A stretch of DNA of 64,000 nucleotides from a virus (Duplodnaviria; Heunggongvirae; Uroviricota; Caudoviricetes): the IMG/VR virus record IMGVR_UViG_2855308460_000004. The stretch is one strand, 5' to 3'. The position numbers and the translations under genes were made by a program. Every line of letters begins with the position of its first letter. The stretch's first letter is position 1. Shown here piece after piece: positions 18,919-64,000 of the stretch. The notes beneath the pieces were generated by a model that was given only the letters and a program-made list of their open reading frames with translations, had not been told where the DNA came from and did no database searches.

Positions 18919-18922
18919 CTAA

Positions 18923-18994: not shown

Positions 18995-18998
18995 TGAA

Positions 18999-21207: not shown

Positions 21208-21867
21208 ATGGATATTTATTTAATTCGTCATGGTGAATCAATCATGAACACAGGAGAAAATACAAAAATTGGAGCAATTGATAATAAAGTCTGGCTCACT
21301 GAAAAAGGGAAAGAGCAAGCAAAAAGATCAGCAGAATTTTTAAAAGAATACTTAGAATATGATTGCAATGGTACGGCTAAAACTGGAATATGGGTTAGTC
21401 CATATAGTAGAACGCGTGAAACTTTTAATATATTCAAGTCAATTATCGACTTCCAGGATATGGGTGCTGTATGTAAAGAAGATATTCTTTTAGCAGAACA
21501 GGAATTTGGATTATTTGACTCTGTACCAGAAGAAAATTGGAGTGATGAGTTTCCAAAAGAATATACGTATTACAAGAAACTGAAAGAAAACCAAGGCAAA
21601 TTTTACGCAAGGTGCCCTATGGGTGAAAGTCCAAAAGATGTTGCAATTAGGTGCCGTATATTTTTTGATACAATCTGGAGAGATTATGATAAGCATCATA
21701 TTGACAAGCTCTTTATATTTACACATGGGACAGTGCTTCGTTCTTTTGTAATGGCTTGGCAGCACTATACACCAGAATGGTATGAAGCAGAAAAAAATCC
21801 AGGCAATTGCTGGATTAGAAGGATTAGTAACAACAAGGACATGGGTTATATATACAAAGGAGAATAA
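21208..21867 (+). CDS. Histidine phosphatase superfamily protein (PGAM-like)
   Basis: N-terminal LIRHGES catalytic motif. Confidence 0.65.
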   Translation: MDIYLIRHGESIMNTGENTKIGAIDNKVWLTEKGKEQAKRSAEFLKEYLEYDCNGTAKTGIWVSPYSRTRETFNIFKSIIDFQDMGAVCKEDILLAEQEFGLFDSVPEENWSDEFPKEYTYYKKLKENQGKFYARCPMGESPKDVAIRCRIFFDTIWRDYDKHHIDKLFIFTHGTVLRSFVMAWQHYTPEWYEAEKNPGNCWIRRISNNKDMGYIYKGE

Positions 21868-21868
21868 T

Positions 21869-22681
21869 ATGTTTTTTTTACTTCAAAAGGAAGAGAAATA
21901 TAACAATCTGGATTTAGAAACATTTATCGTCAAAGATATCCTTGAGCACAATAAATTTATGGATGAATATATTTTCTATTCAAAAGATGATTTTGTTTTA
22001 GATGGACTTTGTGAATATCCAAGATATATAAAACAAGCGATTCCTGTGGGAACAATAGATTTTGTTGAAGCCTGGCTGTATCGATTCCACAAAATCGACT
22101 GTATTAACCCAATTGAGATTCCACCTTGCTTAAGAAAGGAAGAATTCCTAAAGAGAGAATATAGAATTGTAAGGAAAGAGAATCTTCCAACTGCAGGGCA
22201 AATTTTTTTTAAGGATGCATCAAGATTGAAAGTTTTTTCGGGAGAAATTAATTGCGAGACATTTTTTACAGATGATTTGTGGAAACCGAAACAGAATGAT
22301 GTTGATACAACACTTCACTTGGATCCAGAGCATTTATTTCAGGTATCAGAGATTGTGAATATAAGAAGTGAATATAGAATATATATACAGGATAATATCA
22401 TCCAGGCCATCGCAAATTATAATGGAGCTCCTTGTTTGTTGCCAGATGTTGAGTTACTGCAAAAGATGATAAATATCTATTCCATGCAGTACGATTGCCC
22501 AAAAGCTTATACAATGGATGTCGCAGTTAATGAAAAGGGAACATTCCTTTTAGAAATACATCCATGGATAGCAGTAGGATTATATAATAGTCTGTGGAGC
22601 AGAAATTTGTTATATGCATATAGAGATGGCATACAATATGTTTTGGATTTTAATACAGAGATAGAAGAGTGGAACAATTAG
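21869..22681 (+). CDS. ATP-grasp-like hypothetical protein (270 aa)
   Basis: YRIYIQDNII and MDVAVNEKGTFLLEIHPW resemble ATP-grasp C-terminal motifs; start placed at the ATG after RBS aaaggagaa. Confidence 0.35.
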   Translation: MFFLLQKEEKYNNLDLETFIVKDILEHNKFMDEYIFYSKDDFVLDGLCEYPRYIKQAIPVGTIDFVEAWLYRFHKIDCINPIEIPPCLRKEEFLKREYRIVRKENLPTAGQIFFKDASRLKVFSGEINCETFFTDDLWKPKQNDVDTTLHLDPEHLFQVSEIVNIRSEYRIYIQDNIIQAIANYNGAPCLLPDVELLQKMINIYSMQYDCPKAYTMDVAVNEKGTFLLEIHPWIAVGLYNSLWSRNLLYAYRDGIQYVLDFNTEIEEWNN

Positions 22682-22709
22682 GCGAAATATTTAATAGAGG
22701 AGAAAAACT

Positions 22710-23915
22710 GTGTTCGAGTTAAAAGGAAAATATAATAAGTGCAAAATCTTTACGGACGATGTAGATGAGGATTGTATAAGGCAATTAATTTCGCTGCTGA
22801 ATCAAGAGAGTTTACAAGACTCAATAATAAGGATTATGCCGGATGCGCATGCTGGAGCGGGATGTGTGATAGGTACAACAATGACCATTACAGATAAAGT
22901 TATTCCCAATTTAGTTGGCGTTGATATAGGTTGTGGTATGCGTACAGTGAGACTCAAAGAAAAACGGATTGAATTACCAAAATTAGATAGCATAATTCGT
23001 AAGAACATTCCTTCAGGTGGAAGTATACATGACAAATTCAATCAACTTCAATATGCAAGACGATTTGATATTGAACGCCTTCGCTGCATAGGAAAAAATA
23101 ATTGCAAAGTAAGTGAAGACATTGCTGCTTGCAGTATTGGAACACTTGGCGGCGGAAATCATTTCATTGAAGTCGACAAAGATGAAGATGGTAACTTATA
23201 TCTGGTTGTTCATACTGGAAGCCGTAGGCTTGGTAAAGATGTTGCTGAATACTATCAAAATAGGGCCTATGAGGAACTAAATTGTGTTGCCACCTATTAC
23301 AAAGAAATTAAAAAGAAGGATAGGCGGGAAAAGTGGGAAAGACCTGATCCAAGTAAATTGCCATCTGTTCCATATGAATTAGCATACTGTGAAAATGAAT
23401 TGTTGGCTGATTATATCCATGATATGGAGGTTGTGCAGGAATATGCATTTTGGAATCGGAAAGCTATTGCGAATACGATTTTAAAGGAAATGAAACTTCA
23501 TTCAGTAGAAGAATTTGAGACAGTCCACAACTATATTGATACTGAATATATGATTCTTAGAAAAGGTGCCGTCTCAGCAAGGAAAGTTGAAAAAATTTTA
23601 ATCCCGATAAATATGCGTGATGGTTCTTTACTTTGTATGGGAAAAGGAAATGAGGATTGGAATTATTCCGCACCACATGGAGCTGGCCGCTTGATGTCAA
23701 GAAGTCAGGCAAAAGAAAATATTACATTATCAGCATTCAAGAAAACAATGAAGGAGGCAGGTGTTTATAGTACATCGGTGACACGAGATACCATTGATGA
23801 GTCACCATTTGTATACAAACCCATGGAGGAGATTGTAGAAAACATAAAGGATACAGTAGAAATCATAAATGTAATTAGACCAATCTATAATTTTAAAGCT
23901 AGTGTGAAAGAATAG
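22710..23915 (+). CDS. rtcB: RtcB-family RNA ligase (GTG start)
   Basis: MPDAHAGAGCVIG and GGGNHFIEV metal-binding motifs. Confidence 0.8.
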   Translation: MFELKGKYNKCKIFTDDVDEDCIRQLISLLNQESLQDSIIRIMPDAHAGAGCVIGTTMTITDKVIPNLVGVDIGCGMRTVRLKEKRIELPKLDSIIRKNIPSGGSIHDKFNQLQYARRFDIERLRCIGKNNCKVSEDIAACSIGTLGGGNHFIEVDKDEDGNLYLVVHTGSRRLGKDVAEYYQNRAYEELNCVATYYKEIKKKDRREKWERPDPSKLPSVPYELAYCENELLADYIHDMEVVQEYAFWNRKAIANTILKEMKLHSVEEFETVHNYIDTEYMILRKGAVSARKVEKILIPINMRDGSLLCMGKGNEDWNYSAPHGAGRLMSRSQAKENITLSAFKKTMKEAGVYSTSVTRDTIDESPFVYKPMEEIVENIKDTVEIINVIRPIYNFKASVKE

Positions 23916-26325: not shown

Positions 26326-26853
26326 GTGATAATAATGAAAGAAGCATGGAAACCATTGATTTATAAGGGCGTGGATTATTCAGACCGGTTTTACATTTCA
26401 AATCATGGGAATATTTACAGCACATATCGTAAACATGTTCTAAAGGGATTTACTAATAAAAAGGGATATATTCAAATTTCAGCTAGTTACCATGGAAGAA
26501 GATTACTCATTAAGATTCATCAAGCAGTAGCTGAAAATTTTGTGGACGGGTATAAGAAGGGTTTGATCGTAAATCATAAAGATGGAAATAAAACAAATAA
26601 CAAATATACTAATTTAGAATGGGTTACATCAGGAGATAATACTAGACATGCTCATGAAAACGGATTATGTTTATTCGCTAAACCAATAATATGTTTAAAT
26701 ACGGGAGATACTTTTCCATCTTTAGCAGCTGCAGCACGATGGTGTGGACTGAACGAAAAGAGTAGTTCTTTTAGGAGGTATTTCAGAGGTGAGTATAAGT
26801 TTGCTGGAAGAAATCCAGTCACAAAGGAACCTCTCCGATGGAGACTTTTATAA
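26326..26853 (+). CDS. HNH homing endonuclease (NUMOD4 + HNH_3)
   Basis: WKPLIYKGVDYSDRFYISNHGNIYS; NHKDGNKTNNKYTNLEWVT…DN. Confidence 0.75.
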   Translation: MIIMKEAWKPLIYKGVDYSDRFYISNHGNIYSTYRKHVLKGFTNKKGYIQISASYHGRRLLIKIHQAVAENFVDGYKKGLIVNHKDGNKTNNKYTNLEWVTSGDNTRHAHENGLCLFAKPIICLNTGDTFPSLAAAARWCGLNEKSSSFRRYFRGEYKFAGRNPVTKEPLRWRLL

Positions 26854-31237: not shown

Positions 31238-32779
31238 ATGTTAGATTTAATTTTACCGATGTTGCCAATTGTTTTAGTTGTAATCATTCTACTTGGTATT
31301 TTAGCCAGTGGTTATGTAAAAGCGCCACCGGACAGGGCATATATTATTTCTGGCCTTAAGAAGGAACCTAAAATTTTAACTGGTCGTGCTGGTATTAAAA
31401 TTCCGTTTCTTGAGAGACTTGATAAATTGTATCTAGGTCAGATGACGGTTGATATTAAAACAGAGCAGTCCGTTCCAACCAACGACTTTATTAATGTTAA
31501 TGTTGACGCTGTTGCAAAAGTAAGGATTGAACCCTCTGAAGAAGGAATCAAGCTAGCTGCAAAGAACTTCCTTAATAAGAATCAAGATCAGATTACCCTT
31601 GATCTACAGGATTCATTACAAGGAAATATGCGTGAGATTATCGGCACTCTGACATTAAAGGCTATTAACACAGATCGTGATTCATTCTCAGATCAGGTAA
31701 TGGAAAAAGCCTCAAAGGATATGAAGAAACTTGGTATCGAAATCGTATCATGCAATATCCAGAACGTGACAGACGAAAATGGGCTGATTAAGGATCTTGG
31801 TGCTGACAATACTGCCAGAATCAAAAAGGATGCATCTATTGCAAAAGCACAGGCTGAAAGAGATATTGCAATTGCCCAGGCTGAAGCTGATAAGACAGCA
31901 AATGATGCACGAGTAATTTCTGAAACTGAGATTGCACAGAGAAACAATGAACTGTCAATTAAGAAATCCGAGCTGCAGAAAGTTTCCGACACGAAGAAAG
32001 CAGAAGCAGATGCAGCATATGAGATTCAGAGACAGGAGCAGGAAAAAACAATTCAGACCGCAACTGTCAATGCGCAGATTGCAAAAGCTGAAAAGGAAGC
32101 TGAGCTGAAAACAAAAGAAGTTGCTGTTATGCAACAGAAATTAGAAGCTGAAATTAATAAAAAAGCGGATGCAGAACGTTATCGTGTTGAACAAATTGCA
32201 GCTGCGGACCTTGCCCGTAGACAACGAGAAGCAGAAGCTAAGAAATATGAGCAAGAGAAAGAGGCAGAGGCTAAAAAGGCAATTGCAGAAGCACAAAAAT
32301 ATGCAATGTTACAGGAAGCTGAAGGTGTGAAAGCAAAAGGTGAGGCTGAAGCTACTGCAATTCAGGCAAAAGGCCTTGCAGAAGCAGAAGCTATGGAAAA
32401 GAAAGCAGAGGCAATGAAGAAGTATGGCCAGGCTGCTATGATGGAAATGATTGTACAGGCATTACCAGAAATGGCAAAAGCAATTGCGGAACCATTGTCT
32501 ACTATTGATAAGGTAACAATCATTGACAGTGGTAATGGTGAAGCGGGTGTATCTTCCATGGGTTCCTATGTCCCTGGTGTGTTAGCCAAGACGATTGAAT
32601 CTGTAAAGGAGACAACCGGATTGGATATAACGGAAATTATGAAAGCCAATACGTATGATGCTAAGGTAACCAGGAACGTAAATATTTCTGGTCTTCCTGA
32701 GAATGTTGAATCTGATGAAGTTTCAAATGCAATGGTAGCGAAAGAAGTAGTTGAAGCTACTAACAGTAAGGAAGACTAA
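31238..32779 (+). CDS. floT: Flotillin-like SPFH/band-7 protein (FloT/YuaG family)
   Basis: N-terminal TM; SPFH domain; long Ala/Glu/Lys-rich coiled coil; C-terminal MEMIVQALPEMAKAIAEPLSTIDKVTIID. Confidence 0.8.
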   Translation: MLDLILPMLPIVLVVIILLGILASGYVKAPPDRAYIISGLKKEPKILTGRAGIKIPFLERLDKLYLGQMTVDIKTEQSVPTNDFINVNVDAVAKVRIEPSEEGIKLAAKNFLNKNQDQITLDLQDSLQGNMREIIGTLTLKAINTDRDSFSDQVMEKASKDMKKLGIEIVSCNIQNVTDENGLIKDLGADNTARIKKDASIAKAQAERDIAIAQAEADKTANDARVISETEIAQRNNELSIKKSELQKVSDTKKAEADAAYEIQRQEQEKTIQTATVNAQIAKAEKEAELKTKEVAVMQQKLEAEINKKADAERYRVEQIAAADLARRQREAEAKKYEQEKEAEAKKAIAEAQKYAMLQEAEGVKAKGEAEATAIQAKGLAEAEAMEKKAEAMKKYGQAAMMEMIVQALPEMAKAIAEPLSTIDKVTIIDSGNGEAGVSSMGSYVPGVLAKTIESVKETTGLDITEIMKANTYDAKVTRNVNISGLPENVESDEVSNAMVAKEVVEATNSKED

Positions 32780-34386: not shown

Positions 34387-34470
34387 GTGACTATTACATT
34401 TATAAAGAGCTGACCAATAATCAGTTCTTTTTTTATGAAATATCATACTAAAAATAAAAAGGAGTATTTT

Positions 34471-35694
34471 ATGTTCTTAGATATATTTAAAATAAAAAAA
34501 TATTCCAACAAGCAATTTGATAGTTGGCAATTAGATGAAATCCAAAAAGGTAAGGAAGCTGGAGTTGATACTTCAATTTATGCTTATCCGCAAATTAAGC
34601 CATATGAAATGGAAGCTGCTAGAAAGGCTTTGATAATGGGAGTATCTCCAGATTGTTTAAGTTATCTTATTAAAGAATATACTGATAGGAATATAGAAAC
34701 ATATAATTTAGAAGACTTAATAAAAAACTCAATTTATGTTCTTGATATTGATTTTTTAACCACAAAATATTTACCCAAAGAGGCTCCTTCTGAAACGCAT
34801 AAGCTTTTTAAATCTGAAATTCTATATGGTGCGGTATTTGGAGATATTGCTGGAAGTTTCTATGATTTTACACTAAAATCAGATGAGCGTAAGGGTCTTA
34901 ATATAAATAATTGTATAGTTAATGGAAGTAGCTTTACTGATGACACAATTCTTACTTGTGCTACAGCTATTACCATAGGTAATAACACAATAAAAAAAGA
35001 ACAAAGAAGACCCGCTATAAGCGACTTCAATAAAAACTCTTGCTATCCATTTCTAAATAACCCTTTTAAAAGTGAATATCGAGAAAAAACACTTAAATTT
35101 CCTGGAAGTGGATATGGTGCTAATTTCTATGAATGGGCTATTTACAATAGTGATTATCCATATGGCAGTTTTGGAAATGGATCAGCAATGAGAGTTTCTC
35201 CTATTGGCGTTAAGTTTGAAAAAGTAAAAGATGTGATTCTATATGCAATAGCAAGTGCCTCTGTAACACACAATCATCCAGAAGGGATAAAAGGCGCTGC
35301 AGTCACGGCTGTTATTATTTGGATGGCAAGGAATGGGTATAGCAAAGAACAAATCTTTGCATATATGAAAAACTATTATATCAATACATATGGATTTGTT
35401 CACTTTAGTTTAGATGAATTAAAATACCCAATGCATCAATTAAAATCTGATTCAACTTGTATGTTTGCTGTACCTGCAGCTGTTATATGTTTTTATAATG
35501 CAAATTCATATGAAGAAACCATTGATAATATTTTATCATTTAATGGAAATTCTGATACTATAGGCACTATTGCAGGATCAATTGCAGCAGCCTATTATGG
35601 AGTTCCCAAAATGGTAATAGAGAAAGTAAATGAATATAAACCAGAGGGAATATTTGATGAAGCACTATCTGCTTTGAAAAAAGAAGAACCTTAA
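34471..35694 (+). CDS. ADP-ribosylglycohydrolase family protein
   Basis: GAVFGDIAGSFYDF, GSSFTDDTILT, GNGSAMRVSPIG, GNSDTIGTIAGSIAAAYYG. Confidence 0.65.
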   Translation: MFLDIFKIKKYSNKQFDSWQLDEIQKGKEAGVDTSIYAYPQIKPYEMEAARKALIMGVSPDCLSYLIKEYTDRNIETYNLEDLIKNSIYVLDIDFLTTKYLPKEAPSETHKLFKSEILYGAVFGDIAGSFYDFTLKSDERKGLNINNCIVNGSSFTDDTILTCATAITIGNNTIKKEQRRPAISDFNKNSCYPFLNNPFKSEYREKTLKFPGSGYGANFYEWAIYNSDYPYGSFGNGSAMRVSPIGVKFEKVKDVILYAIASASVTHNHPEGIKGAAVTAVIIWMARNGYSKEQIFAYMKNYYINTYGFVHFSLDELKYPMHQLKSDSTCMFAVPAAVICFYNANSYEETIDNILSFNGNSDTIGTIAGSIAAAYYGVPKMVIEKVNEYKPEGIFDEALSALKKEEP

Positions 35695-41224: not shown

Positions 41225-42355
41225 ATGATTCATTTTAAAAACGTCTCCAAATATTTTCATGATAAAGCAGTGATTGATAAAATAAGCATGGAAATTAAAG
41301 ACGGAGAGTTTATTGTTTTACTTGGTGAAAGTGGATGCGGAAAAACGACAACATTAAAAATGATTAATAAACTAATAAGTCCATCAGATGGTGTAATAGA
41401 GATAAATGGAGAAGATATTTCTAAATTGGACACAATAGAATTAAGACGAAAAATGGGATATGTAATTCAGCAAACCGGATTGTTTCCACATATGACAATA
41501 GAGGAAAACATATCGTTGATTGCAAAATTAAATTCAAACAATCATAAAGAAATCTCTAATCATGGAAGACGACTGATGAAAATGGTTAACTTGGACCCGG
41601 AAATATATTTGTCTACCTTTCCATCTGAACTTTCAGGTGGACAGCAGCAGCGAGCAGGTGTAGTCCGTGCATTCATGACAAATCCAGAAATTGTATTAAT
41701 GGATGAACCATTTTCCGCATTGGACCCAATCACAAGGGCCCAGATACAGAATTCACTTTTAGAGATGCAGGAAGAACTGAAACGAACGATTGTTTTTGTG
41801 ACACATGATATGGATGAAGCAATAAAACTTGCGGACCGGATTTGTATCATGGAGGATGGTAGGATTACACAGTTTGATACACCAGAAAACATTTTAAAGT
41901 ATCCAGCAAACGATTTTGTAAAGAATTTTGTCGGTCCGAACCGGATATGGACTTCGCCAAAGTTTATTAGGACTAAGGATATCATGATTTCAGAACCGGT
42001 ATGCTGTCATCCAAGAATGCCAATCTTTAAGTGTGTTGAGACGATGAGTCGTAGGCATGTAGATACGTTGATGGTAACAGATAAGAACAAGCGGTTATAT
42101 GGTGTTTTATATGCAGATTCATTAATCGGATACAATGGAGAAAATAAGAAGGCAGAGGATTTAATGGATACAAATATAACATCCGTATCGCCGGACAGCT
42201 GTATTGTTGATTTACTTACAAAATTTGATGAAAAACATATATCGACACTTCCAGTTGTAAATGTAAATGGCATGCTAGAAGGTTTAATAACAAGGAGTAC
42301 ATTAGTAAACACCCTAAGCCGGCAATTTATCACAGAGAACAAGGAGGAAAATTGA
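41225..42355 (+). CDS. opuCA: Glycine betaine/carnitine/choline ABC transporter ATP-binding protein (OpuCA/ProV-like) with tandem CBS domains
   Basis: Walker A GESGCGKTT; ABC signature LSGGQQQR; Walker B VLMDEP; C-terminal CBS pair. Confidence 0.85.
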   Translation: MIHFKNVSKYFHDKAVIDKISMEIKDGEFIVLLGESGCGKTTTLKMINKLISPSDGVIEINGEDISKLDTIELRRKMGYVIQQTGLFPHMTIEENISLIAKLNSNNHKEISNHGRRLMKMVNLDPEIYLSTFPSELSGGQQQRAGVVRAFMTNPEIVLMDEPFSALDPITRAQIQNSLLEMQEELKRTIVFVTHDMDEAIKLADRICIMEDGRITQFDTPENILKYPANDFVKNFVGPNRIWTSPKFIRTKDIMISEPVCCHPRMPIFKCVETMSRRHVDTLMVTDKNKRLYGVLYADSLIGYNGENKKAEDLMDTNITSVSPDSCIVDLLTKFDEKHISTLPVVNVNGMLEGLITRSTLVNTLSRQFITENKEEN

Positions 42356-42356
42356 C

Positions 42357-43916
42357 ATGAAAGACTTCCTTCAATATGTTTCCACAGCAAGAGAGGAAAT
42401 ATTATATCTATTCTTTGAACATATACAACTAACTGTAATTGCATTATTTGCAGCCATCCTGATTGGAGTACCACTTGGAATTCTTATTTCTTATGTAAGG
42501 AAAACGAGTAAACCAGTCCTGGCATTTGCAAACTTGGTTCAGGCAATACCAAGCATGGCACTGCTCGGTTTAACGATTCCGGTCTTAGGGATTGGAGTAA
42601 AACCTGCCATATGCCTGGTTGTAATTTATTCACTGCTGCCAATCATAAAGAACACATATGCCGGACTCATGAATATCAATGAACAGACCCTGGAAGCAGC
42701 AGAAGGAATTGGACTTACAAAATGGCAGATTTTGTTTAAGATTCGTTTGCCAATGGCGCTTCCGGTCATTATGACAGGCGTCAGGATATCTGCAGTATCG
42801 GCGGTAGGACTTATGACACTGGCTGCTTTTGTTGGAGGCGGAGGTCTTGGATTTTTAGTGTTTTCTGGAATCAGGACAGTAGATAATTCAAAGATACTGG
42901 CTGGTGCGATTCCAGCATGTATTTTAGCTCTACTTGTAGACCGTGTGTTTGCTGCAATTGAAACTATTGTGACACCTATTAGTCTAATGGAAGGAAAGGA
43001 TAAAAGTAAGAAAATCAAACAGAAAAAACTAGATAGACTAATTGTGATTGCTGCCATGGCAACAATGATAGGATTGATAATGGCTTCATGCTTAAAACCA
43101 AAAGAGGAGAATCAAATTACGATAGCTAGCCAGGACTTTACAGAGAATGAAATTTTAGCTTATATGATGGAAGAAATGATAGAGAATGAAACAGGCTACA
43201 ACGTAGAAGTCATCCCGGACTTGGGAGGAGAATCCGTCTGTTTATCTTCAATCCGGGCAGGAGAAATAGATGGTTATGTTGACTATACAGGGACCCTATA
43301 TGTAAATGTCCTAAAAAAGGAAGCAATATCAGATGTTAACCAAGTTTACGAAGAAACCAGGAGTAGTATGCTGGATCAATACAATCTTGTGGTTCTACCA
43401 TCACTGAATGTTAATAATACATACACAATTTCAACCACAAAAGAAATAGCAGAGGAATATGGATTGGATACAATAAGTGACTTAAAAAAACAAAGCGGAA
43501 AATTAAGGATGGTTTCCACGTTATCATTTTTAAATAGGGAAGATGGTCTAAAAAAGGTTAAGAGTGTCTATGGATTGACTTTTTCTGATGAAATTGGAGT
43601 TGATGGTGCTTCCAGATACACAGCCTTAATGAACGGAGAAGGTGATTTAATTGATGCTTACTCAACTGACGGATTACTGGAAAAATTTGAACTGAAGATC
43701 CTTGAAGATGATAAGGGTGCATTTCCACCTTATTATGCCGTTCCTGTTTTCCGTTCAGAAATCATAGAGAAATATCCAGTGATTTCAAGTGTCACAGAGA
43801 AAATGACAGAACTTCTGTCTACGGAAGAGATGGCAAAATTAAATTACTTGGTAGACGAAGAAGGAATGTCACCCAAAGATGTTGCTCGTGATTTCCTGGA
43901 TGAAAAATCAAAATAA
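42357..43916 (+). CDS. Fused permease plus substrate-binding protein of an OpuC/BusA-type osmoprotectant ABC transporter
   Basis: N-terminal ABC TM permease (EAA-like region) joined to a C-terminal glycine-betaine-binding SBP domain. Confidence 0.75.
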   Translation: MKDFLQYVSTAREEILYLFFEHIQLTVIALFAAILIGVPLGILISYVRKTSKPVLAFANLVQAIPSMALLGLTIPVLGIGVKPAICLVVIYSLLPIIKNTYAGLMNINEQTLEAAEGIGLTKWQILFKIRLPMALPVIMTGVRISAVSAVGLMTLAAFVGGGGLGFLVFSGIRTVDNSKILAGAIPACILALLVDRVFAAIETIVTPISLMEGKDKSKKIKQKKLDRLIVIAAMATMIGLIMASCLKPKEENQITIASQDFTENEILAYMMEEMIENETGYNVEVIPDLGGESVCLSSIRAGEIDGYVDYTGTLYVNVLKKEAISDVNQVYEETRSSMLDQYNLVVLPSLNVNNTYTISTTKEIAEEYGLDTISDLKKQSGKLRMVSTLSFLNREDGLKKVKSVYGLTFSDEIGVDGASRYTALMNGEGDLIDAYSTDGLLEKFELKILEDDKGAFPPYYAVPVFRSEIIEKYPVISSVTEKMTELLSTEEMAKLNYLVDEEGMSPKDVARDFLDEKSK

Positions 43917-51135: not shown

Positions 51136-52626
51136 ATGAATGAGGATAGAGTATATAAAGTACTTATGGCTACTGGAATCAAAGACCTAGATTCCAGTGT
51201 GGCAGAACTAACTAACTGTGAGGTTGTAGGCATTTCAAAGACAAAAGAAGATTTATATGTAGACATTCATAACCATAAACCACAGGTTGTTATTGTTTCT
51301 GATTTATTGGATGGAGAAGGTGTGCTATCAGGAATGTTACCACCATTAAAGAGGGAGTTCCATTATACCCGGTTTATTTATCTGGCAGGCCAGCTTAATC
51401 CAAGGGACCAGGAAAGAATTGATGAACTGGGCAAATTGGTATTGAATGGGATTTATGATATATGTATTGCTAAAGTCCTAAATCTGGAGCTTTTAGATAA
51501 TTTGATCAAAAATCCAAAGACAGAAGAGGCGGTATCCTATTTGGCAAAAAATATTCTTAACAATACAGAGACAATGGAGCAGTTTGATGTACCGATTTCT
51601 GGCTTAGTCCAGGCAAAGAATATTGGAAAGGGAAGTATTGACAATGTTTATGTGTTTACTTCTGTTAAGCCAGGTACTGGAAAATCTTTCTTATCAGTTA
51701 ATACAGCATGTGCAATAGCAAAATATGGAGTATGTAAGGAGCACGGAGATAAACCAAGGATTGCATTGGTGGAAGCAGATTTGCAGACATTATCAATTGG
51801 AACAATATTAAACATTAAAGAAGACAAGAAAAAAAACATGAAAACGGCAATGGAAGCAATCAGCACAATCTTCGATAAAGGAAATCTTGTAGGTGATGAT
51901 TCTTCCATTATGCTTGTCAATAAACTAATTCGGGATTGCATGGTACCATATGACGGATTGGATAATCTGCATGTGCTTGCTGGATCCACATTAACACCAG
52001 AAGAAATTGATTCACTAAAGATTTCATCCGAATATTATATTTATCTACTTGAGGTGTTAAAGAAGGAATACGACATTGTGATAATTGATACAAATTCATC
52101 CATGATGCACATAACCACCTATCCGTTACTGCAGAAGGCAGAACGATGCTTTTATATTATGAACTTGGATATTAATAATGTCCGAAATAATTTAAGATAT
52201 TTAGGCGTATTGAAGAAACTAAACCTGACGGACAAAATTAATTGGATCTTGAATGAAAATATAGAGAATAATAAGAAATTTAAGGAACAGGGAATAGACG
52301 TTGAAAAGCTCCATTTTACTGCGGAAGACCTTGAAACAAAATATAGGATGAACTTTGTTGCTAAGATTCCTGCTATCTCAAAAACAATTTTTCTAAACCG
52401 TGTATATGATGGCACGCCTTTGGTACTAGATGAAGATAATGTTACATATACATTGGATGCTAAAAGGGAATTACTGAATTTGGCGGATATTATATGGAAA
52501 ATAGAAAAAGAGGTACCTTCGGCTCCCGAAAAAAAGAGTGGAGGTTTCTTTGGGCTTTTTTCAAAAAAGGATAAGAAGGAACCAAAACCACCTAAGACGA
52601 AAAAAAATAAGAAGGAGGAAAATTAA
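51136..52626 (+). CDS. ParA/MinD/CpaE-family P-loop ATPase with an N-terminal receiver-like domain and a basic C-terminal tail
   Basis: Deviant Walker A SVKPGTGKSF; VIIDTNSS; 496 aa. Confidence 0.5.
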   Translation: MNEDRVYKVLMATGIKDLDSSVAELTNCEVVGISKTKEDLYVDIHNHKPQVVIVSDLLDGEGVLSGMLPPLKREFHYTRFIYLAGQLNPRDQERIDELGKLVLNGIYDICIAKVLNLELLDNLIKNPKTEEAVSYLAKNILNNTETMEQFDVPISGLVQAKNIGKGSIDNVYVFTSVKPGTGKSFLSVNTACAIAKYGVCKEHGDKPRIALVEADLQTLSIGTILNIKEDKKKNMKTAMEAISTIFDKGNLVGDDSSIMLVNKLIRDCMVPYDGLDNLHVLAGSTLTPEEIDSLKISSEYYIYLLEVLKKEYDIVIIDTNSSMMHITTYPLLQKAERCFYIMNLDINNVRNNLRYLGVLKKLNLTDKINWILNENIENNKKFKEQGIDVEKLHFTAEDLETKYRMNFVAKIPAISKTIFLNRVYDGTPLVLDEDNVTYTLDAKRELLNLADIIWKIEKEVPSAPEKKSGGFFGLFSKKDKKEPKPPKTKKNKKEEN

Positions 52627-52628
52627 CA

Positions 52629-54971
52629 ATGATTTCAAAAAAAGACAAAATCCAAAAACTTGCACTGACACTTAAGGAGTCTGATATTCTGATGAAAGAA
52701 CTGGAGGCGGAAAGGGATGAATCCTTACAAAACATCCGGTTCGATGGAGAAGAAGAGCTCCTTGAACAGTATTATAAGAAAAGCCTGACATCAGTCTACC
52801 GTATCAGGAATAACGCTGCTGCATTGCTATTAAGGAGTAACTGCTCCTGCTTGGTGTCGGAAGATAACACAAAAATATACTTATATGTAGATGATAGAGT
52901 ATGTGAGTTTTCCATACCGACCATTAAAAATATACTTCAAGGTGATTTTGATAAGATACTAGAAAAAAACCGTACAGAGAATCCTGTCATAATATATTTA
53001 GAGATGCCGAATCAGACAAATATGGGAAAGACAATGGAGGCCAGTCCTATAGTAGATGCATCTGTAAAACCAGAAAAACCAAATAAAATGATGCAGAAAG
53101 AAAATAAACCATCTGATAACAAGTCGGTCATAACGGTTAAACCAAAGGTGGATATTAAACCAGAGAGAATGGCTAATGACAACAAACAGGACACAGCTAT
53201 ATTAAAACCTAAGGAAATAAAGAAAGTAAAAGAAGACATAAGTGATGGTATGGATGATTTCTTGTGGGAAGATGAACCCAGAAAAGATATTAGTGCAGTG
53301 ATTGCAAAACCAGCCGGTCCTGAGGTTATGAAAGAAACAGACCAGCCCGCTAAGCAAAAGGCTGAAAAAATCCCTACATGTTTGCAAGAAACCAACATGG
53401 ATGAAAAGAAGCCAGAATTAGAACAAACTAAAAATATACCTTACATGGATACCGATTTTAATAAAAAGGAACAGCCTTTACAGAAAAAAGATAATGATAC
53501 TGTCACGGATAAATCAATTGATGATGAACCTCTTTGGGATATTGACGATGATTTATTTAGTCCTGGAACTGTTGATAAAATAAACGAAAGTGAAAAACCA
53601 GTATTAACCATTAAGGAAAATATAAAAGAAAAACGCAAGATTCATATCGCTCCGGTAAAGAATAAAGAAGTACATGCTAACGAGGATTTACATGCAAAAT
53701 ATCCTTTACAGAATAAAGAAGATGATTTCATATTTGGCCATGAGGAATCGCTAGTATGGAATGATGATGAAGATATGGGATTGGAAGAACAGGATGATAA
53801 AACATCAAAGACACAAGCGAAACCATTTCAATCTCATGATAATTCAGACACATCAAGTACTTCAAAGCCACTACAATCAAAACCTAATGATGTAATTAAA
53901 AAAAATACAGATGAGATAGAAAAGGAAAATACAGAACGGTTCCGGTTTGATAAGTTAGTAAATGATACTGAAGACGTAAATGAAGAGGAGATAACTACCC
54001 AACCGATTTTTAGTTCAGAAACAATTGACATGGATCCAGAGGAAATTCTTAAAAAATTGAAGAATACCAAATCAATCCGTGAACAGGCTGAAATTGAACA
54101 ACGGATTTTAAGTGAAGCTAATACGGAAGTTTCAAGTGGAGCCATCTTTGATATGTCAACTGGCAAGAAACAGACAGGAAACATTGATGTAGAGCGTGAA
54201 GCAAACAAAATTGGTGAGGTAGCAGAAGGCGTCATTAGTACATCCAAAAAAGATACGTTAGTGGATAAAAAACTGGAACTTGATTTAACATCAGCTGGAA
54301 CATCAAACCGATATGCAATACAACCAGAATCTGATTATAAAAGAAAACATTCTGCTTTCTTGTATGATAAATGTAAACTTAGGATTAGCATGTATGACGA
54401 ATCAGATGAACTTATCAAGACAGAAGAGGCAGAATTAATTATATTCCCGTTAAAAATTCCCGAGTCTGGTAATTCATTAGTTACAGATATCTGTGCATAT
54501 CTAGAAGCAGATGGTGAATCACATATAGCAGCTGTCTCGCCTGGTGGAAAGACAACCGTGACAATTAAATCAGATGAATATGCAATATTTATAAGAGGGT
54601 CTTGGGAAAATGGAAACTTTATAACAGCCATTTCGGTCATTGGTGTAGGTACGAATGTTAAAGCAGATATTCAGAAAGATGAAATACGCCCAGAAAATCT
54701 TATGGAAGCGGGTATAGGACATAACGTTCTTTACATAGATCATATAACAACCGTCCATATCATGCCGCGAGAAGAAAAGAATAACCTATATGAAGGTGAT
54801 TATGTTGATTTCATTGCAGTAATCGTAAGAGACTATGGAATTGATCAGGACTGTGAAACGGCATACACAAATCATGATGTTGAAATGAAAATTAAAGGTG
54901 AACGATATAAATACAATTTAATTGGTAAGTGGGATAATGAGGAATTCAGATTGAAATTAATGGCAAAATAA
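52629..54971 (+). CDS. Large hypothetical protein (780 aa) with a long acidic/Lys-rich low-complexity centre carrying repeated [DE]-rich-Trp motifs and a globular C-terminal domain
   Basis: Immediately follows the ParA-like gene; motifs DDFLWEDEP, DEPLWDIDDDLF, ESLVWNDDEDMG. Confidence 0.5.
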   Translation: MISKKDKIQKLALTLKESDILMKELEAERDESLQNIRFDGEEELLEQYYKKSLTSVYRIRNNAAALLLRSNCSCLVSEDNTKIYLYVDDRVCEFSIPTIKNILQGDFDKILEKNRTENPVIIYLEMPNQTNMGKTMEASPIVDASVKPEKPNKMMQKENKPSDNKSVITVKPKVDIKPERMANDNKQDTAILKPKEIKKVKEDISDGMDDFLWEDEPRKDISAVIAKPAGPEVMKETDQPAKQKAEKIPTCLQETNMDEKKPELEQTKNIPYMDTDFNKKEQPLQKKDNDTVTDKSIDDEPLWDIDDDLFSPGTVDKINESEKPVLTIKENIKEKRKIHIAPVKNKEVHANEDLHAKYPLQNKEDDFIFGHEESLVWNDDEDMGLEEQDDKTSKTQAKPFQSHDNSDTSSTSKPLQSKPNDVIKKNTDEIEKENTERFRFDKLVNDTEDVNEEEITTQPIFSSETIDMDPEEILKKLKNTKSIREQAEIEQRILSEANTEVSSGAIFDMSTGKKQTGNIDVEREANKIGEVAEGVISTSKKDTLVDKKLELDLTSAGTSNRYAIQPESDYKRKHSAFLYDKCKLRISMYDESDELIKTEEAELIIFPLKIPESGNSLVTDICAYLEADGESHIAAVSPGGKTTVTIKSDEYAIFIRGSWENGNFITAISVIGVGTNVKADIQKDEIRPENLMEAGIGHNVLYIDHITTVHIMPREEKNNLYEGDYVDFIAVIVRDYGIDQDCETAYTNHDVEMKIKGERYKYNLIGKWDNEEFRLKLMAK

Positions 54972-54997
54972 AAAGCGGTAATTAAACCGCTTTTTCT
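54972..54997. terminator. Bidirectional terminator
   Basis: gcggt-aattaa-accgc flanked by A and T runs. Confidence 0.6.
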
Positions 54998-55326
54998 TTT
55001 GACTGGATGAATACATAGAAGGATACGCAAACAGCAAATTTTTGTGTAAGATATCTTGCCTGGAAATCGTATCCTAACATGTTTGTAATCGTCAGATACA
55101 TTGTTTTGATGGAATCAGCTAATTGTGCATGATATTCCGTAAGTCTACTGGAATACCATGACCCAGCCTTCCATACAAGCTCGGTCATTTCGTTGAACAT
55201 AGACTTAATCGCTGATAAATCACTGGAGCTCAAATTATTAAATTTTTCGTTGAACAATCTTAAGTACATATCATTGATTGTCCTATTTTTCATTACCTCT
55301 TCAATTTTTTCGATGTCGATTAACAT
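54982..55326 (-). CDS. Hypothetical protein (114 aa)
   Basis: ORF. Confidence 0.45.
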   Translation of the reverse strand: MLIDIEKIEEVMKNRTINDMYLRLFNEKFNNLSSSDLSAIKSMFNEMTELVWKAGSWYSSRLTEYHAQLADSIKTMYLTITNMLGYDFQARYLTQKFAVCVSFYVFIQSKEKAV

Positions 55327-55524
55327 TACTCAGTCTATGACTCCTTTCAAGTTATTTCTCCACATATCGTTATCAATTATAATAATGTAAATAAAAAAAG
55401 TAGAATAACTGAATAAATGAGATTTATCGAATCACAAATAAATATAAAAGAGTGTGGCAAATAAGGTTTCAAATACATAGGTTTAAAAATATTCTGTCAT
55501 ACTAAGTCTAGAGGAGGGTGTAAG

Positions 55525-56454
55525 ATGGGTTTTTTAGATAAACTATTATTAAAGAAAAAAGACAAAGAAGGTATCTCTGAAAAAGATTTATTAACGAGAT
55601 TGGATGAAAAAGGAATCATATACGCATTATCAGAGACGGATAATGGTTATCAAATGACGTACCTTGATACGTTTGACAAAGAGAAATTTGTTATAGTCAA
55701 AGATGGCGATAAATACAGGATTAATGGAAAAAGTGTATCCGAGGAGGAGATAGAAGAAATACTCGATAAACAACATAAGTTAGATAATGAAATGGAAGTT
55801 TTGCTATATGATCCAGATTATGAGAAATTAATGCTAATATACGATTTTTTAATAAAGGCCATCCCTAAAAATATAATAACCATAGATTTTGCATTATCAC
55901 CAAAAGGAGATCTTACGTTATTATTTTCAGAACCAGAGTCACGCCCTTTTACATCAATCCATATGGACAGTAAAACAAAGAAACTTGTGTATGATAAAAC
56001 AAGAGAGGTATTGAATAAAAATAATATACTGATACGGATTATAAAAGATATAAAAAAACAATTGCCTCTATTTTTCGATGCAGGAGAATTTAAAATTCCG
56101 GAACAGACTCCTTTTACAGATGTTGTAAAGACTTTTTTTGTGAATGAAGCCTTGATAGAAAGATTAAATAAGACAAAAAACATCGAAGCGAAGTTAATAG
56201 AATTTTCAGGAAACACTACAATCTTTATTATATTTAAGAATGGATCGGCCATGGAATACATTTCACCAACAAAACAGAATCCAGCAGGGAAACTTTTATT
56301 GATGGATGTCGATGAAGATACAACATTAGAAGATAATGAAGAATATTGGTTAGTCCAGAAAATATTAAAATTACCATCTTGTCTAGATGGTAAGCCAGAT
56401 GAAGAGAACATGCCTATCCGTAATTTTAAGAACAGAAAAAGCCTGAAAGTATAA
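55525..56454 (+). CDS. Hypothetical protein (309 aa)
   Basis: RBS gaggagggtg. Confidence 0.5.
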   Translation: MGFLDKLLLKKKDKEGISEKDLLTRLDEKGIIYALSETDNGYQMTYLDTFDKEKFVIVKDGDKYRINGKSVSEEEIEEILDKQHKLDNEMEVLLYDPDYEKLMLIYDFLIKAIPKNIITIDFALSPKGDLTLLFSEPESRPFTSIHMDSKTKKLVYDKTREVLNKNNILIRIIKDIKKQLPLFFDAGEFKIPEQTPFTDVVKTFFVNEALIERLNKTKNIEAKLIEFSGNTTIFIIFKNGSAMEYISPTKQNPAGKLLLMDVDEDTTLEDNEEYWLVQKILKLPSCLDGKPDEENMPIRNFKNRKSLKV

Positions 56455-56466
56455 TCAGGCTTTTAT

Positions 56467-57306
56467 TTATATGTCATATAACCAGTTATCATTAATCTGT
56501 GATATTTCATCTTTCGAAGCGACTTTACAATAAATATTTTCTACTGATATATATCGTAGTCTGAATTCATTTTTTAGTTCTTCAGCCAAACTTTCTCTTT
56601 GGTCCGGATTAACGCAAGACATGAGCGGATGTTCAAATAATTTACAGTCTGCGACAAGTCTTTTATAAAATTCCATTTTCTCCTTAGCCTTACTTTTAAC
56701 AATATCAAAATAAATATTGCGTGGTAATGAACTAAAGAGCTTTCCTTGTGTCTGTATTTCCAGATACGAAACTTTATTTAATTGATTCTCCGTATATACA
56801 TCAAAATTAGTATCCCGTTTTAGTCCATATGTATCAGAAAGCTGCGATTCATCATAACTTGCAAGATAAATATTCAAAAAAAGATTTGGCTCTAATCCAA
56901 GTTCCTTTAACTCATCTACAAATATCCCAAATTCTTCTTGTGTTCCCTTTTTTCTTTTACGTTTTGAATATTCCGAATCAGAAATAACGAAGAGCTCCTC
57001 ACCGCCGCATGATTCTGCTGCAATTTTTAGGATTTGAATGAAATCTTTTTTAATGTCCAGATTTAGAAACCCTGATATTAAGTCGAATCCATTGCCAAAA
57101 CCATGGCAGCTATGGCAGTAGAAAGCTTTTTTAAAGGTCTCGCCTAACACACAGTTATTTATATGGCGATCCTTGGAACCAGTTTCTCGTTCATGGACAG
57201 GACATTCTATGAATATGGTTTTCCCTGATTCTTTTGTGGGAATACCAAGATACTTTACAATTCCCATAGGAGAGGCTTCCTCAACAATCAAGTCAATATC
57301 ATACAT
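56467..57306 (-). CDS. CHC2 zinc-finger (DnaG primase N-terminal-like) domain protein
   Basis: CPVHERETGS…YCHSCHGFGNGFDLI. Confidence 0.45.
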   Translation of the reverse strand: MYDIDLIVEEASPMGIVKYLGIPTKESGKTIFIECPVHERETGSKDRHINNCVLGETFKKAFYCHSCHGFGNGFDLISGFLNLDIKKDFIQILKIAAESCGGEELFVISDSEYSKRKRKKGTQEEFGIFVDELKELGLEPNLFLNIYLASYDESQLSDTYGLKRDTNFDVYTENQLNKVSYLEIQTQGKLFSSLPRNIYFDIVKSKAKEKMEFYKRLVADCKLFEHPLMSCVNPDQRESLAEELKNEFRLRYISVENIYCKVASKDEISQINDNWLYDI

Positions 57307-57381
57307 ACATTTCCTCCTTCTAAGTCAAGATATTAGTATAATGCGATATAAAAGATTATAATAAAAACGGCATTGCTGCCG

Positions 57382-58185
57382 TTAAACCTCTCCATTAAAA
57401 AAGTTATTCAGTTCTTTGCTTCTCTTAAGCTTATTCATCGCATTGGATTTTATTTTATAAACATATTGTCTTGATACACCAAGTTCAAGTGCGAGATCTG
57501 TTAATTTTCGTACATGACCATTAATCCCAAAAGTATTGATGATTACATACTGTTCCAAAGGTTTTAATCGACTTTGGATTTCATGCTTTATCATCTTTTT
57601 TAACTCTTCATTAATGATGAGAGTCTCAATCGGCTCATTGAATATTAAATCACTATTCTCATCCATGGAAGCGAAGGTTCCGTTTTCCGTAAGGGAATCT
57701 AATGAATAGCATGCCTCTCTTTTGTATTTTTGTACTGTCTCTACATCTTTTACTGTTAGGTTAAACTGTTCTAACTCCTCTTCAGTGAAACAGGACTTTT
57801 TTGTAGAACTAACCAGTTTATCATATTTCCTGAGTTTATCATAAAAAGTAGAATTATAGTGAAAATCTGAATTATTCTTAGATGTTTTATCTCTCATTTC
57901 TGCACGTATCCAGCTAAAGGCATGCGTCGTAAATGAGGCCTTTGTTTCATCGTATGTAGCTAGTGCATTTATCATGCCAACAATTCCATCCTGAAACAAA
58001 TCATCTTCAGAATAATTGGATGTTTTATATTGATGAGCTAATTTGCTAATAAGTCGATAATTGTGAGCCAGTAGTTTTTCTTTTGCTTCAACATCTCCTT
58101 GTTTAGCTAGGATAGCTAAACGGTTATTCTCATCATGTCCTAAAATACATTTTTTTACCATATCTTCTTTTATGTCTTGATTCAT
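57382..58185 (-). CDS. Sigma-70 family RNA polymerase sigma factor
   Basis: Region 2-like HAFSWIRAEM and a C-terminal region 4 HTH LTDLALELGVSRQYVYKIK. Confidence 0.6.
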   Translation of the reverse strand: MNQDIKEDMVKKCILGHDENNRLAILAKQGDVEAKEKLLAHNYRLISKLAHQYKTSNYSEDDLFQDGIVGMINALATYDETKASFTTHAFSWIRAEMRDKTSKNNSDFHYNSTFYDKLRKYDKLVSSTKKSCFTEEELEQFNLTVKDVETVQKYKREACYSLDSLTENGTFASMDENSDLIFNEPIETLIINEELKKMIKHEIQSRLKPLEQYVIINTFGINGHVRKLTDLALELGVSRQYVYKIKSNAMNKLKRSKELNNFFNGEV

Positions 58186-62908: not shown

Positions 62909-63124
62909 GTTATTAAGAGGTGTAATTACAAAGTTACATCTCTTTTTATTTATGTGATTAAAATTCCATATTAAAGCATATAAGGGAAAAATGGAGGGTA
63001 CAAGAATGAATATAAACAGAAATATTACCTTATGGCCAAAAAGGCCACAATACACAGACAGTAAACTGAATACAGGAGAGGCCTGTTTCAAATATATGAA
63101 ATATACAGGAGTGGAGGTAAACAT

Positions 63125-64000
63125 ATGCGTAAAGTATTAGTTTTAAGAGGTGCTCCTGGCGCAGGAAAGACAACATGGATTAAAGACAAGAAACTGGTTC
63201 CATATACCTTATCATTTGACAATATCAGGATGCTATATCAAAGCCCGATACAGACAATCTATGGACGAGAGTCTACTGGTCAAAAGGCAAATGCACAGGC
63301 TTATGATACTCTATTCAGTATATTGGAAGAGCGTATGAAGAACGGAGAATTCACCGTGATTGATTGTGTGAACAGCAAGAAATCACAAATTCAGAAATAT
63401 CAGGAATTAGCCTTAAAATACCGATACGAGTTGTATGTTGTTGATTTTACCACAGTCCCAATTGGCGTTGCAAAATCCAGGAACATTCATCGTTCCGCAA
63501 GAAAAAGGGTTCCAGACAGCGTTGTTGAAAATGCTTATAATGAATTCAAAGAGGAAGCACTGTCAGATAAAATAAAAGTAATTAAACCGGATGAGTTAAA
63601 TACAATATATGAAAAACCTGTAGATTTATCAGTATACAGGAAAATTCATCATATCGGAGATATCCATGGTTGCGATGAAGTATTAAAAAGGGCACTGAAT
63701 GATAATGGGAACCTACGCGAAGATGAATTCTATATCTTTCTTGGTGACTACACAGATAAAGGACCTCGTAGCGATAGAATTCTTGAATTCTTACTATCAA
63801 TCAGGAACAAGCCAAATGTAATCCTTTGTGAAGGAAACCATGAACATTGGATATGGAATTGGAGTAATGGAATAGAAGATTACTCAGAAGATTTCATGAC
63901 GAATACATTTCCTCAGCTTAATGGCATAAATAAAAAGGATATCAGAAAGCTGTATAGACAACTGAAAGAGTGTTTCATCTATACTTATAAAGGAAAGAAT
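63125..64000 (+). CDS. Pnkp-like polynucleotide kinase-phosphatase (P-loop kinase plus calcineurin-type metallophosphatase); 3' end lies beyond the window
   Basis: LRGAPGAGKTT; GDIHG, GDYTDKG, EGNHE metallophosphoesterase motifs. Absent from the ORF track only because no stop falls within the window. Confidence 0.75.
   Translation, partial: MRKVLVLRGAPGAGKTTWIKDKKLVPYTLSFDNIRMLYQSPIQTIYGRESTGQKANAQAYDTLFSILEERMKNGEFTVIDCVNSKKSQIQKYQELALKYRYELYVVDFTTVPIGVAKSRNIHRSARKRVPDSVVENAYNEFKEEALSDKIKVIKPDELNTIYEKPVDLSVYRKIHHIGDIHGCDEVLKRALNDNGNLREDEFYIFLGDYTDKGPRSDRILEFLLSIRNKPNVILCEGNHEHWIWNWSNGIEDYSEDFMTNTFPQLNGINKKDIRKLYRQLKECFIYTYKGKN

Follow-up and report, generated by a model that had tools for sequence, protein, structure and literature searches.

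A putative RNA end-healing enzyme without a ligase, encoded by a core gene of large 33%-GC elements from assemblies of Enterocloster and Hungatella

Introduction

What does a phage-like sequence encode when its last open reading frame (ORF), cut by the end of the available DNA, joins a P-loop kinase to a calcineurin-type phosphoesterase, and does that protein belong to the Pnkp/Hen1 system of bacterial RNA repair, whose Pnkp subunit begins in the same way? The question is raised by the IMG/VR virus record IMGVR_UViG_2855308460_000004 (Duplodnaviria; Heunggongvirae; Uroviricota; Caudoviricetes), of which a stretch of 64,000 nucleotides, hereafter the window, was analysed. The initial annotation, made from the letters of the window, had read the frame opening at position 63125 as a Pnkp-like kinase-phosphatase, with a possible ligase domain beyond position 64000, and had proposed to look for a Hen1 methyltransferase gene downstream.

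Here we describe the complete product of this gene, RHB42184.1, the family from which it comes and the element that carries it. The protein ends just past the phosphoesterase fold, and we consider it probable that it is a stand-alone two-domain RNA end-healing enzyme, its activity being predicted from homology. The gene itself is vertically inherited and syntenic, and belongs to the core genes of a family of 33%-GC (guanine plus cytosine) elements found in Enterocloster and Hungatella assemblies.

Results and discussion

The gene ends just past the phosphoesterase fold

The frame starting with the ATG at 63125 (plus strand) is open for 292 codons up to base 64000 and contains all the motifs first noticed there; it is missing from the ORF list, as first reported, only because that list omits ORFs running off an end. 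An in-frame stop lies 20 codons 5' of the ATG, and the start codon is backed by the homologues P0002 and P0005, which begin at the same methionine (the coordinates of this and other features are collected in Table 1). The rest of the gene was read from its own contig, QSGP01000005.1 (472,371 bp; assembly GCA_003467385.1, labelled Enterocloster aldenensis), on which the window occupies approximately positions 276603-340602; the part of this contig designated locus L005 matched the window with 0 mismatches over 12,751 shared bases. There the gene stops after 399 codons, at the window equivalent of position 64324, and its product carries the GenBank name 'serine/threonine protein phosphatase'.

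The 107 residues past the window end complete the phosphoesterase fold and carry the motifs HGG (His297) and GHR (His346), and the full protein, which ends just past this fold, showed AAA_33 and Metallophos as its only Pfam domains, with no third domain. The ligase domain expected beyond 64000 is therefore absent. The length is typical of the group, as all 44 members of the 90% identity cluster have 399-430 amino acids. Comparisons with the 99%- and 92%-identical orthologues, both unsaturated, gave ratios of nonsynonymous to synonymous substitution rates (dN/dS) of 0.054 and 0.062. The gene is thus intact and under strong purifying selection. It should be added that a consensus scan recovered three terminator-like sites in the region against 0.1 expected, as pattern matches only; one of them, the hairpin between the upstream lipoprotein gene and the ATG, suggests separate transcription of the kinase-phosphatase gene.

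Both halves retain the catalytic residues of Pnkp

The proposed fusion of a P-loop kinase to a calcineurin-type phosphoesterase was borne out by Pfam, with matches to AAA_33 (4e-15) and to Metallophos, the latter extending over residues 173-256 in the window part (4.6e-14) and over 173-366 in the full protein. In the HMMER alignment to structure 4gp7, the kinase domain (CthPnk) of Clostridium thermocellum Pnkp (CthPnkp), residues K15, T16, D32, R35, R119, R123 and R126 pair with Lys21, Ser22, Asp38, Arg41, Arg116, Arg120 and Arg123, respectively. Of the CthPnk residues, Lys21, Ser22, Asp38 and Arg41 are essential, and Arg120 and Arg123 belong to the lid (PMC3902929). Across 26-31 homologues in two alignments, K15, D32 and R123 were invariant and R35 nearly so, and the best structure match of the family profile was again 4gp7 (8e-14). 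The N-terminal kinase thus has the P-loop Lys/Ser pair, the Asp-x-x-Arg acceptor site and the arginine lid that are characteristic of Pnkp.

In the phosphoesterase domain, D179, H181, D208, D211, N238, H239 and H297 were invariant in the same homologues, and H346 was so in one of the two alignments and nearly so in the second. The metal ligands correspond by motif to Asp187, His189, Asp233, Asn263, His264, His323 and His376 of CthPnkp (PMC3675462), and no metal or phosphate ligand of the Pnkp phosphoesterase is missing except at the position of Arg237, where Lys212 stands.

The fold points in the same direction. An AlphaFold model of P0002, 78% identical to RHB42184.1, reached a predicted local distance difference test score (pLDDT) of 92.9 and a predicted template modelling score (pTM) of 0.89. 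Its best matches in the PDB by Foldseek were the CthPnkp kinase structures 4gp7 and 4jt2, with template modelling (TM) scores of 0.74-0.77 on the target, and for the phosphatase half the CthPnkp phosphatase 4j6o (TM 0.65-0.68), followed by PP5-type phosphatases and the lambda phosphatase (1g5b).

The GenBank name would imply a Ser/Thr protein phosphatase of the generic type, joined to an unrelated ATPase, and by plain sequence the top PDB matches of the phosphoesterase half are indeed PP1/PP2A/BSU1 and the lambda phosphatase. These PPP-family matches are, however, limited to the shared metal-binding core (residues ~173-245), the N-terminal half has the acceptor site and arginine lid of polynucleotide kinases, and in most relatives the two domains travel with an RNA ligase. 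Furthermore, NCBIfam models of Ser/Thr phosphatases scored far below their cut-offs (PRK09968, 32 vs 332 bits; PRK11439, 28.5 vs 326 bits). The lambda Ser/Thr phosphatase itself shares the core fold and the motifs GDxHG, GDxxDRG and GNHE, but is a single domain of 221 amino acids without a kinase; it also hydrolyses 2',3'-cyclic nucleotides (PMC3675462). A mere protein phosphatase, the outcome that the initial annotation had named as counting against its own assignment, is also at odds with the profile searches, in which bacter_Pnkp was the best NCBIfam match and the PHROG family phrog_8238 matched at 2e-82. We regard this explanation as very improbable, and the label 'serine/threonine protein phosphatase' as probably wrong.

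RHB42184.1 is not the Pnkp of a Pnkp/Hen1 system

The kinase-then-metallophosphoesterase order is that of Pnkp, TIGR04075 (bacter_Pnkp) gave its match (1e-19) across both domains, and CthPnkp domains are the closest solved structures of both halves; to this extent the initially proposed Pnkp-like architecture stands. Like C. thermocellum Pnkp, RHB42184.1 has a T4-like N-terminal kinase followed by a binuclear metallophosphoesterase with conserved catalytic residues; unlike it, RHB42184.1 has neither a Pnkp-type ligase nor a Hen1, and has Lys for Arg237.

The further step, membership in the Pnkp/Hen1 repair-and-methylation system with ligase and Hen1 past the window, fails in the following comparisons with genuine loci. 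Control Pnkp ORFs from GTDB genomes mostly have 831-866 amino acids (one has 783), whereas RHB42184.1 stops at residue 399, without the C-terminal Pnkp-type ligase that would give a total of ~830-870. Against the TIGR04075 equivalog cut-off of 750 bits it scored 70.3, a genuine Pnkp control (L054) scoring 1367.2, and its identity to genuine Pnkp is 22-27%. In the genuine loci hen1 lies directly upstream of pnkp: four control loci have a gene of 467-478 amino acids directly 5' of pnkp, and two of these genes were recognised as Hen1 (PF12623, 1e-105 to 1e-109, plus a methyltransferase domain). The gene upstream of the kinase-phosphatase in the window encodes a lipoprotein, and no adjacent hen1 (Hen1_L plus methyltransferase) is present.

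The Hen1 partner was likewise not found downstream. A hidden Markov model (HMM) based on the Hen1 proteins of four genuine hen1-pnkp loci, of which two had been verified with Pfam, reached no E-value better than 0.5 in the window, L005 and the orthologous loci, and the five unannotated ORFs downstream of the RHB42184.1 gene had no Pfam match; at its own contig, the searches for Hen1 and for a ligase covered 73 kb of 472 kb, namely the window and 9.5 kb downstream. The early stop without ligase or Hen1 is the result that the initial annotation had itself set against its proposal. Gene length, the TIGR04075 score with its positive control and the Hen1 search together rule out membership, to which we give next to no probability, and the label 'Pnkp/Hen1 repair system' is certainly wrong for this protein.

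A ligase-less branch of the phage kinase-phosphatase-Rnl1 family

The strongest family match, phrog_8238 ('RNA ligase'), placed residues 1-291 on profile positions 1-295 of 737, leaving the C-terminal part of the profile without a counterpart. Homologues fell into three tiers. Those with 55-92% identity all have 388-430 amino acids and two domains only; those with 31-50% identity mostly have ~715-766 amino acids and a C-terminal T4-Rnl1-type ligase (PF09511); and those with 22-27% identity are canonical Pnkp. The middle tier came from phages of Bacillus (SPbeta-like), Staphylococcus and Fusobacterium and from contigs binned with genomes of Lachnospiraceae, Phascolarctobacterium, Saccharibacteria, Campylobacter and Bacilli. 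In GTDB, a scan based on the family alignment found relatives at no more than 47% identity among the matches listed, and 22 of the 27 listed loci with 31-47% identity had a fused Rnl1-like domain, mostly in proteins of 715-742 amino acids; a GTDB scan with patterns derived from P0002 returned no matches.

The kinase and phosphatase halves of the phage kinase-phosphatase-Rnl1 proteins (PHROG 8238, usually annotated 'RNA ligase') are homologous to RHB42184.1 end to end, with shared motifs and domain order. Examples are the proteins of Bacillus SPbeta-like phages (732 amino acids with PF09511; 43.8% identity to RHB42184.1), of Staphylococcus Twortvirinae (766 amino acids) and of Fusobacterium phage phiKSUM (721 amino acids). 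Identity to RHB42184.1 is 36-44% for the phage proteins and rises to 47-50% for relatives from Lachnospiraceae bins and metagenomes. What distinguishes RHB42184.1 is the lack of the C-terminal PF09511 ligase of ~300 amino acids, which is neither fused to it nor encoded immediately next to it or nearby.

In a neighbour-joining tree of the kinase-phosphatase region, calculated without bootstrap values and rooted on canonical Pnkp, the two-domain clade of RHB42184.1 sits inside the fused proteins, so that its lineage has most likely lost the ligase, this being the parsimonious origin of the clade. The same tree contained at least four further independent ligase-less lineages (L016, L039, L025/L027 and L033/L035). 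Judged by these relationships, the true family of RHB42184.1 is the phage kinase-phosphatase-Rnl1 group, here minus the ligase.

A scan of IMG/VR with the ligase domain returned 545 relatives, the best 80 of which were all ordinary phage fusions; a 233-kb IMG/VR contig of the element described below was not among these best 80 of 545, which says nothing about the presence of a ligase on it. Two observations on the fused genes may be recorded here. On a 178-kb phage-like contig (L014, 6001-9031), a 249-amino acid ORF with a weak LAGLIDADG match separates a kinase-phosphatase part (496 amino acids) from an Rnl1 part (251 amino acids), which looks like a trifunctional gene split by insertion of a mobile element. 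Staphylococcus phages have a gene for a nucleoside 2-deoxyribosyltransferase next after their fused kinase-phosphatase-ligase gene. No experimental work on the phage kinase-phosphatase-Rnl1 family was found in the literature.

Predicted healing of RNA ends

By homology, the N-terminal kinase would move the gamma-phosphate of a nucleoside triphosphate (NTP) onto a 5'-OH polynucleotide end, with Asp32, oriented by Arg35, as the general base and the NTP held by Lys15, Thr16 and Mg2+. The C-terminal Mn2+-type binuclear phosphoesterase would open a 2',3'-cyclic phosphate and may also strip the resulting 2'- or 3'-phosphate. Ends with 5'-OH and 2',3'-cyclic phosphate, which anticodon nucleases, among other metal-independent RNases, leave behind, would in this manner be converted into 5'-phosphate and 3'-OH. 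Given the predicted descent from phage kinase-phosphatase-Rnl1 tRNA-repair proteins with loss of the ligase module, any sealing would need an unlinked ATP-dependent ligase; otherwise healing alone may be the end point. A precedent comes from C. thermocellum: CthPnkp together with a separate T4 Rnl1 performed tRNA splicing in vitro, and CthPnkp-H189D(1-472), which comprises the kinase and phosphoesterase modules only, was fully active with the yeast Trl1 ligase (PMC1920235).

A stand-alone healer working with a separately encoded ligase against anticodon nucleases or ribotoxins is also the logic, although no more than the logic, of T4 Pnkp with Rnl1 and of the Capnocytophaga Pnkp1-Rnl-Hen1 system. 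With the kinase-phosphatases of these systems, RHB42184.1 has its kinase fold and Asp/Arg acceptor site in common (PMC3902929). The phosphatase of T4 Pnkp and Pnkp1, on the other hand, is a DxDxT (HAD) acylphosphatase of a different superfamily (PMC4411300; PMC3592404), whereas the second domain of RHB42184.1 is Metallophos; and their ligase partner is known, while none was found for RHB42184.1 in the stretch searched. Pnkp1 was considered as a precedent for a ligase-less Pnkp and was rejected, being a T4-type protein with a HAD phosphatase (PMC4411300). As for membership in a defence system, PADLOC gave a single noise match (0.006).

Several observations weigh against a healing enzyme that prepares RNA for a ligase. 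Searches for an Rnl1 domain in the window, L005, L001, L002, L009, L011 and L012 found none (best E-value 0.11), both with phmmer (three phage ligase domains as queries against ORFs of at least 50 amino acids) and with an HMM from five domains (stop-to-stop ORFs of at least 40 amino acids); the same HMM recovered fused relatives at up to 1e-133, and a very divergent ligase could sit among the ORFs of 235-780 amino acids that have no family match. As for RNA ligases, the window encodes a single one, RtcB (22710-23915). RtcB acts on 3'-phosphate or 2',3'-cyclic phosphate plus 5'-OH termini, that is, on the unhealed ends which RHB42184.1 would destroy, and would be a parallel or competing route rather than a partner. 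The neighbours of the kinase-phosphatase gene include no RNA-repair gene, and the context therefore gives no support for RNA over DNA as substrate. In the kinase, most members of the RHB42184.1 clade have Val or Ile at the position of CthPnk Thr80, which contacts the acceptor at its first phosphodiester, and several fused or split relatives have Thr there. In the phosphoesterase, residue 212 is Lys where CthPnkp has the phosphate-binding Arg237; the R237K change in CthPnkp abolished Mn-dependent phosphomonoesterase activity and left the cyclic phosphodiesterase in place and faster (PMC3675462). If Lys212 behaves in this way, the enzyme may fail to leave a clean 3'-OH.

Alternatively, RHB42184.1 might heal without any sealing, in a counter-defence or housekeeping role for which a ligase is not needed. 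There have been at least four to five independent losses of the ligase module (the four lineages named above and the RHB42184.1 clade), the ligase-less form is strongly purified by selection, and five orthologous loci have no ligase that could be found nearby. The resemblance of Lys212 to R237K, with the diesterase kept and the monoesterase lost, would fit as well, and so would weak sub-threshold matches to the ApaH/PrpE hydrolases of diadenosine tetraphosphate (Ap4A). Nevertheless, 73 kb of the 472-kb contig were searched and an unlinked ligase may lie elsewhere on it, members of the clade have either Arg or Lys at position 212, so that Lys marks no fixed specialisation, the ApaH/PrpE scores lie far under the cut-offs (PRK00166, 41.3 vs 176; PRK13625, 26.5 vs 340), and the acceptor residues of the kinase are of the polynucleotide type. 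Healing as an end in itself appears to us a rather unlikely account, and the predicted two-domain RNA end-healing enzyme remains the reading we favour.

Conserved neighbourhood without an operon partner

The gene stands in a block whose order was kept in orthologous loci with protein identities as low as 55%. The block runs from a CHC2 zinc-finger protein and a sigma factor (both on the minus strand) through a RecD2-like helicase, signal peptidase I and a ~540-amino acid lipoprotein to the kinase-phosphatase, an ORF of ~134 amino acids, a variable insert, an ORF of ~87 amino acids, a lipoprotein of ~480 amino acids (minus strand) and topoisomerase. On L005 the downstream part consists of ORFs of 134, 219 and 87 amino acids, a 483-amino acid ORF in the opposite orientation and a type IA topoisomerase, beyond which follow a 108-amino acid ORF and then one Uma2-family and one PcfJ-like gene. 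Upstream, the stretch 51136-58185 of the window also holds ORFs of 780 and 309 amino acids without a family match; most of the genes from the 780-amino acid ORF through the sigma factor also occur at the closest orthologous loci, and those for the zinc-finger protein and the sigma factor were encountered again at identities as low as 55%. No operon partner of the kinase-phosphatase gene was seen.

This company would fit a DNA-end 5'-kinase/3'-phosphatase, comparable to mammalian PNKP, that would serve replication or repair of the element together with helicase, topoisomerase and a DNA ligase: the CHC2 primase-like gene, the RecD2-like helicase and the type IA topoisomerase belong to the block in all orthologous loci to 55% identity, and CthPnk phosphorylates both DNA and RNA 5'-OH ends (PMC1920235; PMC3902929). 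The block, however, also includes a signal peptidase and lipoproteins and is therefore not a functional operon, the terminator-like hairpin lies 5' of the kinase-phosphatase gene, and in L002 three unrelated genes have been inserted directly after it. Moreover, the wider family is fused to a T4 Rnl1-type RNA ligase and not to DNA ligases, and a phosphoesterase of the CthPnkp type works on ribonucleotide 2',3'-cyclic, 2'- and 3'-phosphates (PMC1920235). We consider a DNA-end enzyme unlikely, and slightly more so than healing without sealing; the role of RHB42184.1 may nonetheless be repair together with an unlinked ligase, healing with no sealing to follow, or the processing of DNA ends.

The insertion in L002 (11283-13825), directly after a 78%-identical kinase-phosphatase, comprises genes for a PnuC-type transporter of nicotinamide mononucleotide, a 205-amino acid ORF product and a 448-amino acid protein with an N-terminal radical-SAM motif.

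Table 1. Positions of the kinase-phosphatase gene, its motifs and other genes within the window
Feature	Position	Strand	Basis
RHB42184.1 coding sequence, codons 1-292 of 399	63125..64000	+	translation; own contig supplies the remainder
Shine-Dalgarno-like GGAGG, 7 nt 5' of ATG	63113..63117	+	direct reading
Terminator-like hairpin, 13-pair stem, then T-run; 3' of upstream lipoprotein gene	62915..62944	+	consensus scan
Predicted polynucleotide 5'-kinase domain, residues 4-142	63134..63550	+	Pfam AAA_33, 4e-15
P-loop GAPGAGKTT (G9-T17)	63149-63175	+	direct reading
Catalytic Asp32 and Arg35	63218-63229	+	alignment to 4gp7
Lid Arg119, Arg123, Arg126	63479-63502	+	alignment to 4gp7
Binuclear metallophosphoesterase, residues 173-292 of 173-366 within the window	63641..64000	+	Pfam Metallophos
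GDIHG	63656-63670	+	direct reading
GDYTDKG	63743-63763	+	direct reading
GNHE	63833-63844	+	direct reading
TnpB (OrfB_IS605 and Cas12f-like TNB domain), just past first tRNA array	3126-4370		
TelA	6489-7706		
LytR-family protein	7814-9121		
EAL domain protein	9231-9872		
NUMOD4/HNH homing-endonuclease gene, after radical-SAM gene	26326-26853		
Flotillin-like protein	31238-32779		
ADP-ribosylglycohydrolase	34435-35694		
OpuA-type ABC transporter	41225-43916		
ParA-like ATPase	51136-52626		
279-amino acid protein with DnaG-type CHC2 zinc finger only	56467-57306	-	
Sigma-70 family factor	57382-58185	-	

The host element

The window has a GC content of ~33%, that of the closely related Enterocloster hominis being reported as ~50% (PMC12056005). 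The same proteins were found on contigs of 233-562 kb, some of them labelled Hungatella hathewayi or Enterocloster citroniae, and the 233-kb contig in IMG/VR carries a 99%-identical copy of the kinase-phosphatase. Megablast searches of INPHARED and PLSDB with 14-20 kb of window sequence gave no match, and no published description of the element family was found in the full-text literature; the element may be a giant phage or a megaplasmid, or of some other kind.

Its genes for SecY, ClpP, TelA, the LytR-family protein, the EAL domain protein, the flotillin-like protein, ADP-ribosylglycohydrolase and the OpuA-type transporter are cellular-type genes on an element of foreign GC content. SecY lacks its usual ribosomal-protein neighbours and adjoins the ClpP protease (10792-12114 and 12282-12878, respectively; minus strand).

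The window contains 37 tRNA genes, arranged in two arrays of 18 (539-2682) and 19 (16489-19077) and covering 18 amino acids, and no rRNA. The count is that of ARAGORN; Rfam called 35, the genes at 1255-1329 and 1330-1418 being called by ARAGORN only. Two genes of the second array, tRNA-Gln(UUG) of 87 nt (16651-16737) and tRNA-Lys(UUU) of 82 nt (16985-17066), fold into cloverleaves with an additional stem-loop in the variable region, which is unusual for bacterial tRNAs of these types. Approximately 2-5 kb downstream of this array, three consecutive genes at 21208-23915 encode a His_Phos_1 histidine phosphatase, an R2K-clade ATP-grasp protein and RtcB (phrog_1075, 1e-136), and this trio may constitute a second RNA-end-processing module.

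Taken further, these features would suggest a self-contained tRNA supply and maintenance kit of giant gut-Lachnospiraceae elements, extrachromosomal or viral (contigs of 0.23-0.56 Mb, 33% GC), with at least 37 tRNA genes, RtcB and the ligase-less healer as a core gene. RHB42184.1 would then feed no classical ligase but act in a way not yet described for this fold, for instance by making the ends of cleaved tRNAs such that re-cleavage or signalling by the host is blocked, or, through the Lys212 variant, by yielding 2'- or 3'-phosphate ends for non-canonical sealing. We put this forward as speculation, no more likely in our estimate than the processing of DNA ends.

Conclusions

RHB42184.1 appears to be a natural ligase-less healing enzyme composed of a kinase and a metallophosphoesterase, a cut-down relative of phage RNA-repair proteins. 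To our knowledge, this combination without a ligase is otherwise known only from the laboratory-truncated Pnkp of C. thermocellum. The kinase-phosphatase-Rnl1 family is common in gut viromes, as the 545 ligase-domain relatives in IMG/VR illustrate, and has shed its ligase several times. The host element may prove the more interesting object, with its size of ~0.5 Mb, foreign GC content, tRNA arrays and genes for a SecY, a ClpP and a sigma factor of its own, and with its occurrence in assemblies made from cultured isolates. The function of a healer without a sealing partner would clarify how large mobile elements shield translation from tRNA-cleaving defences.

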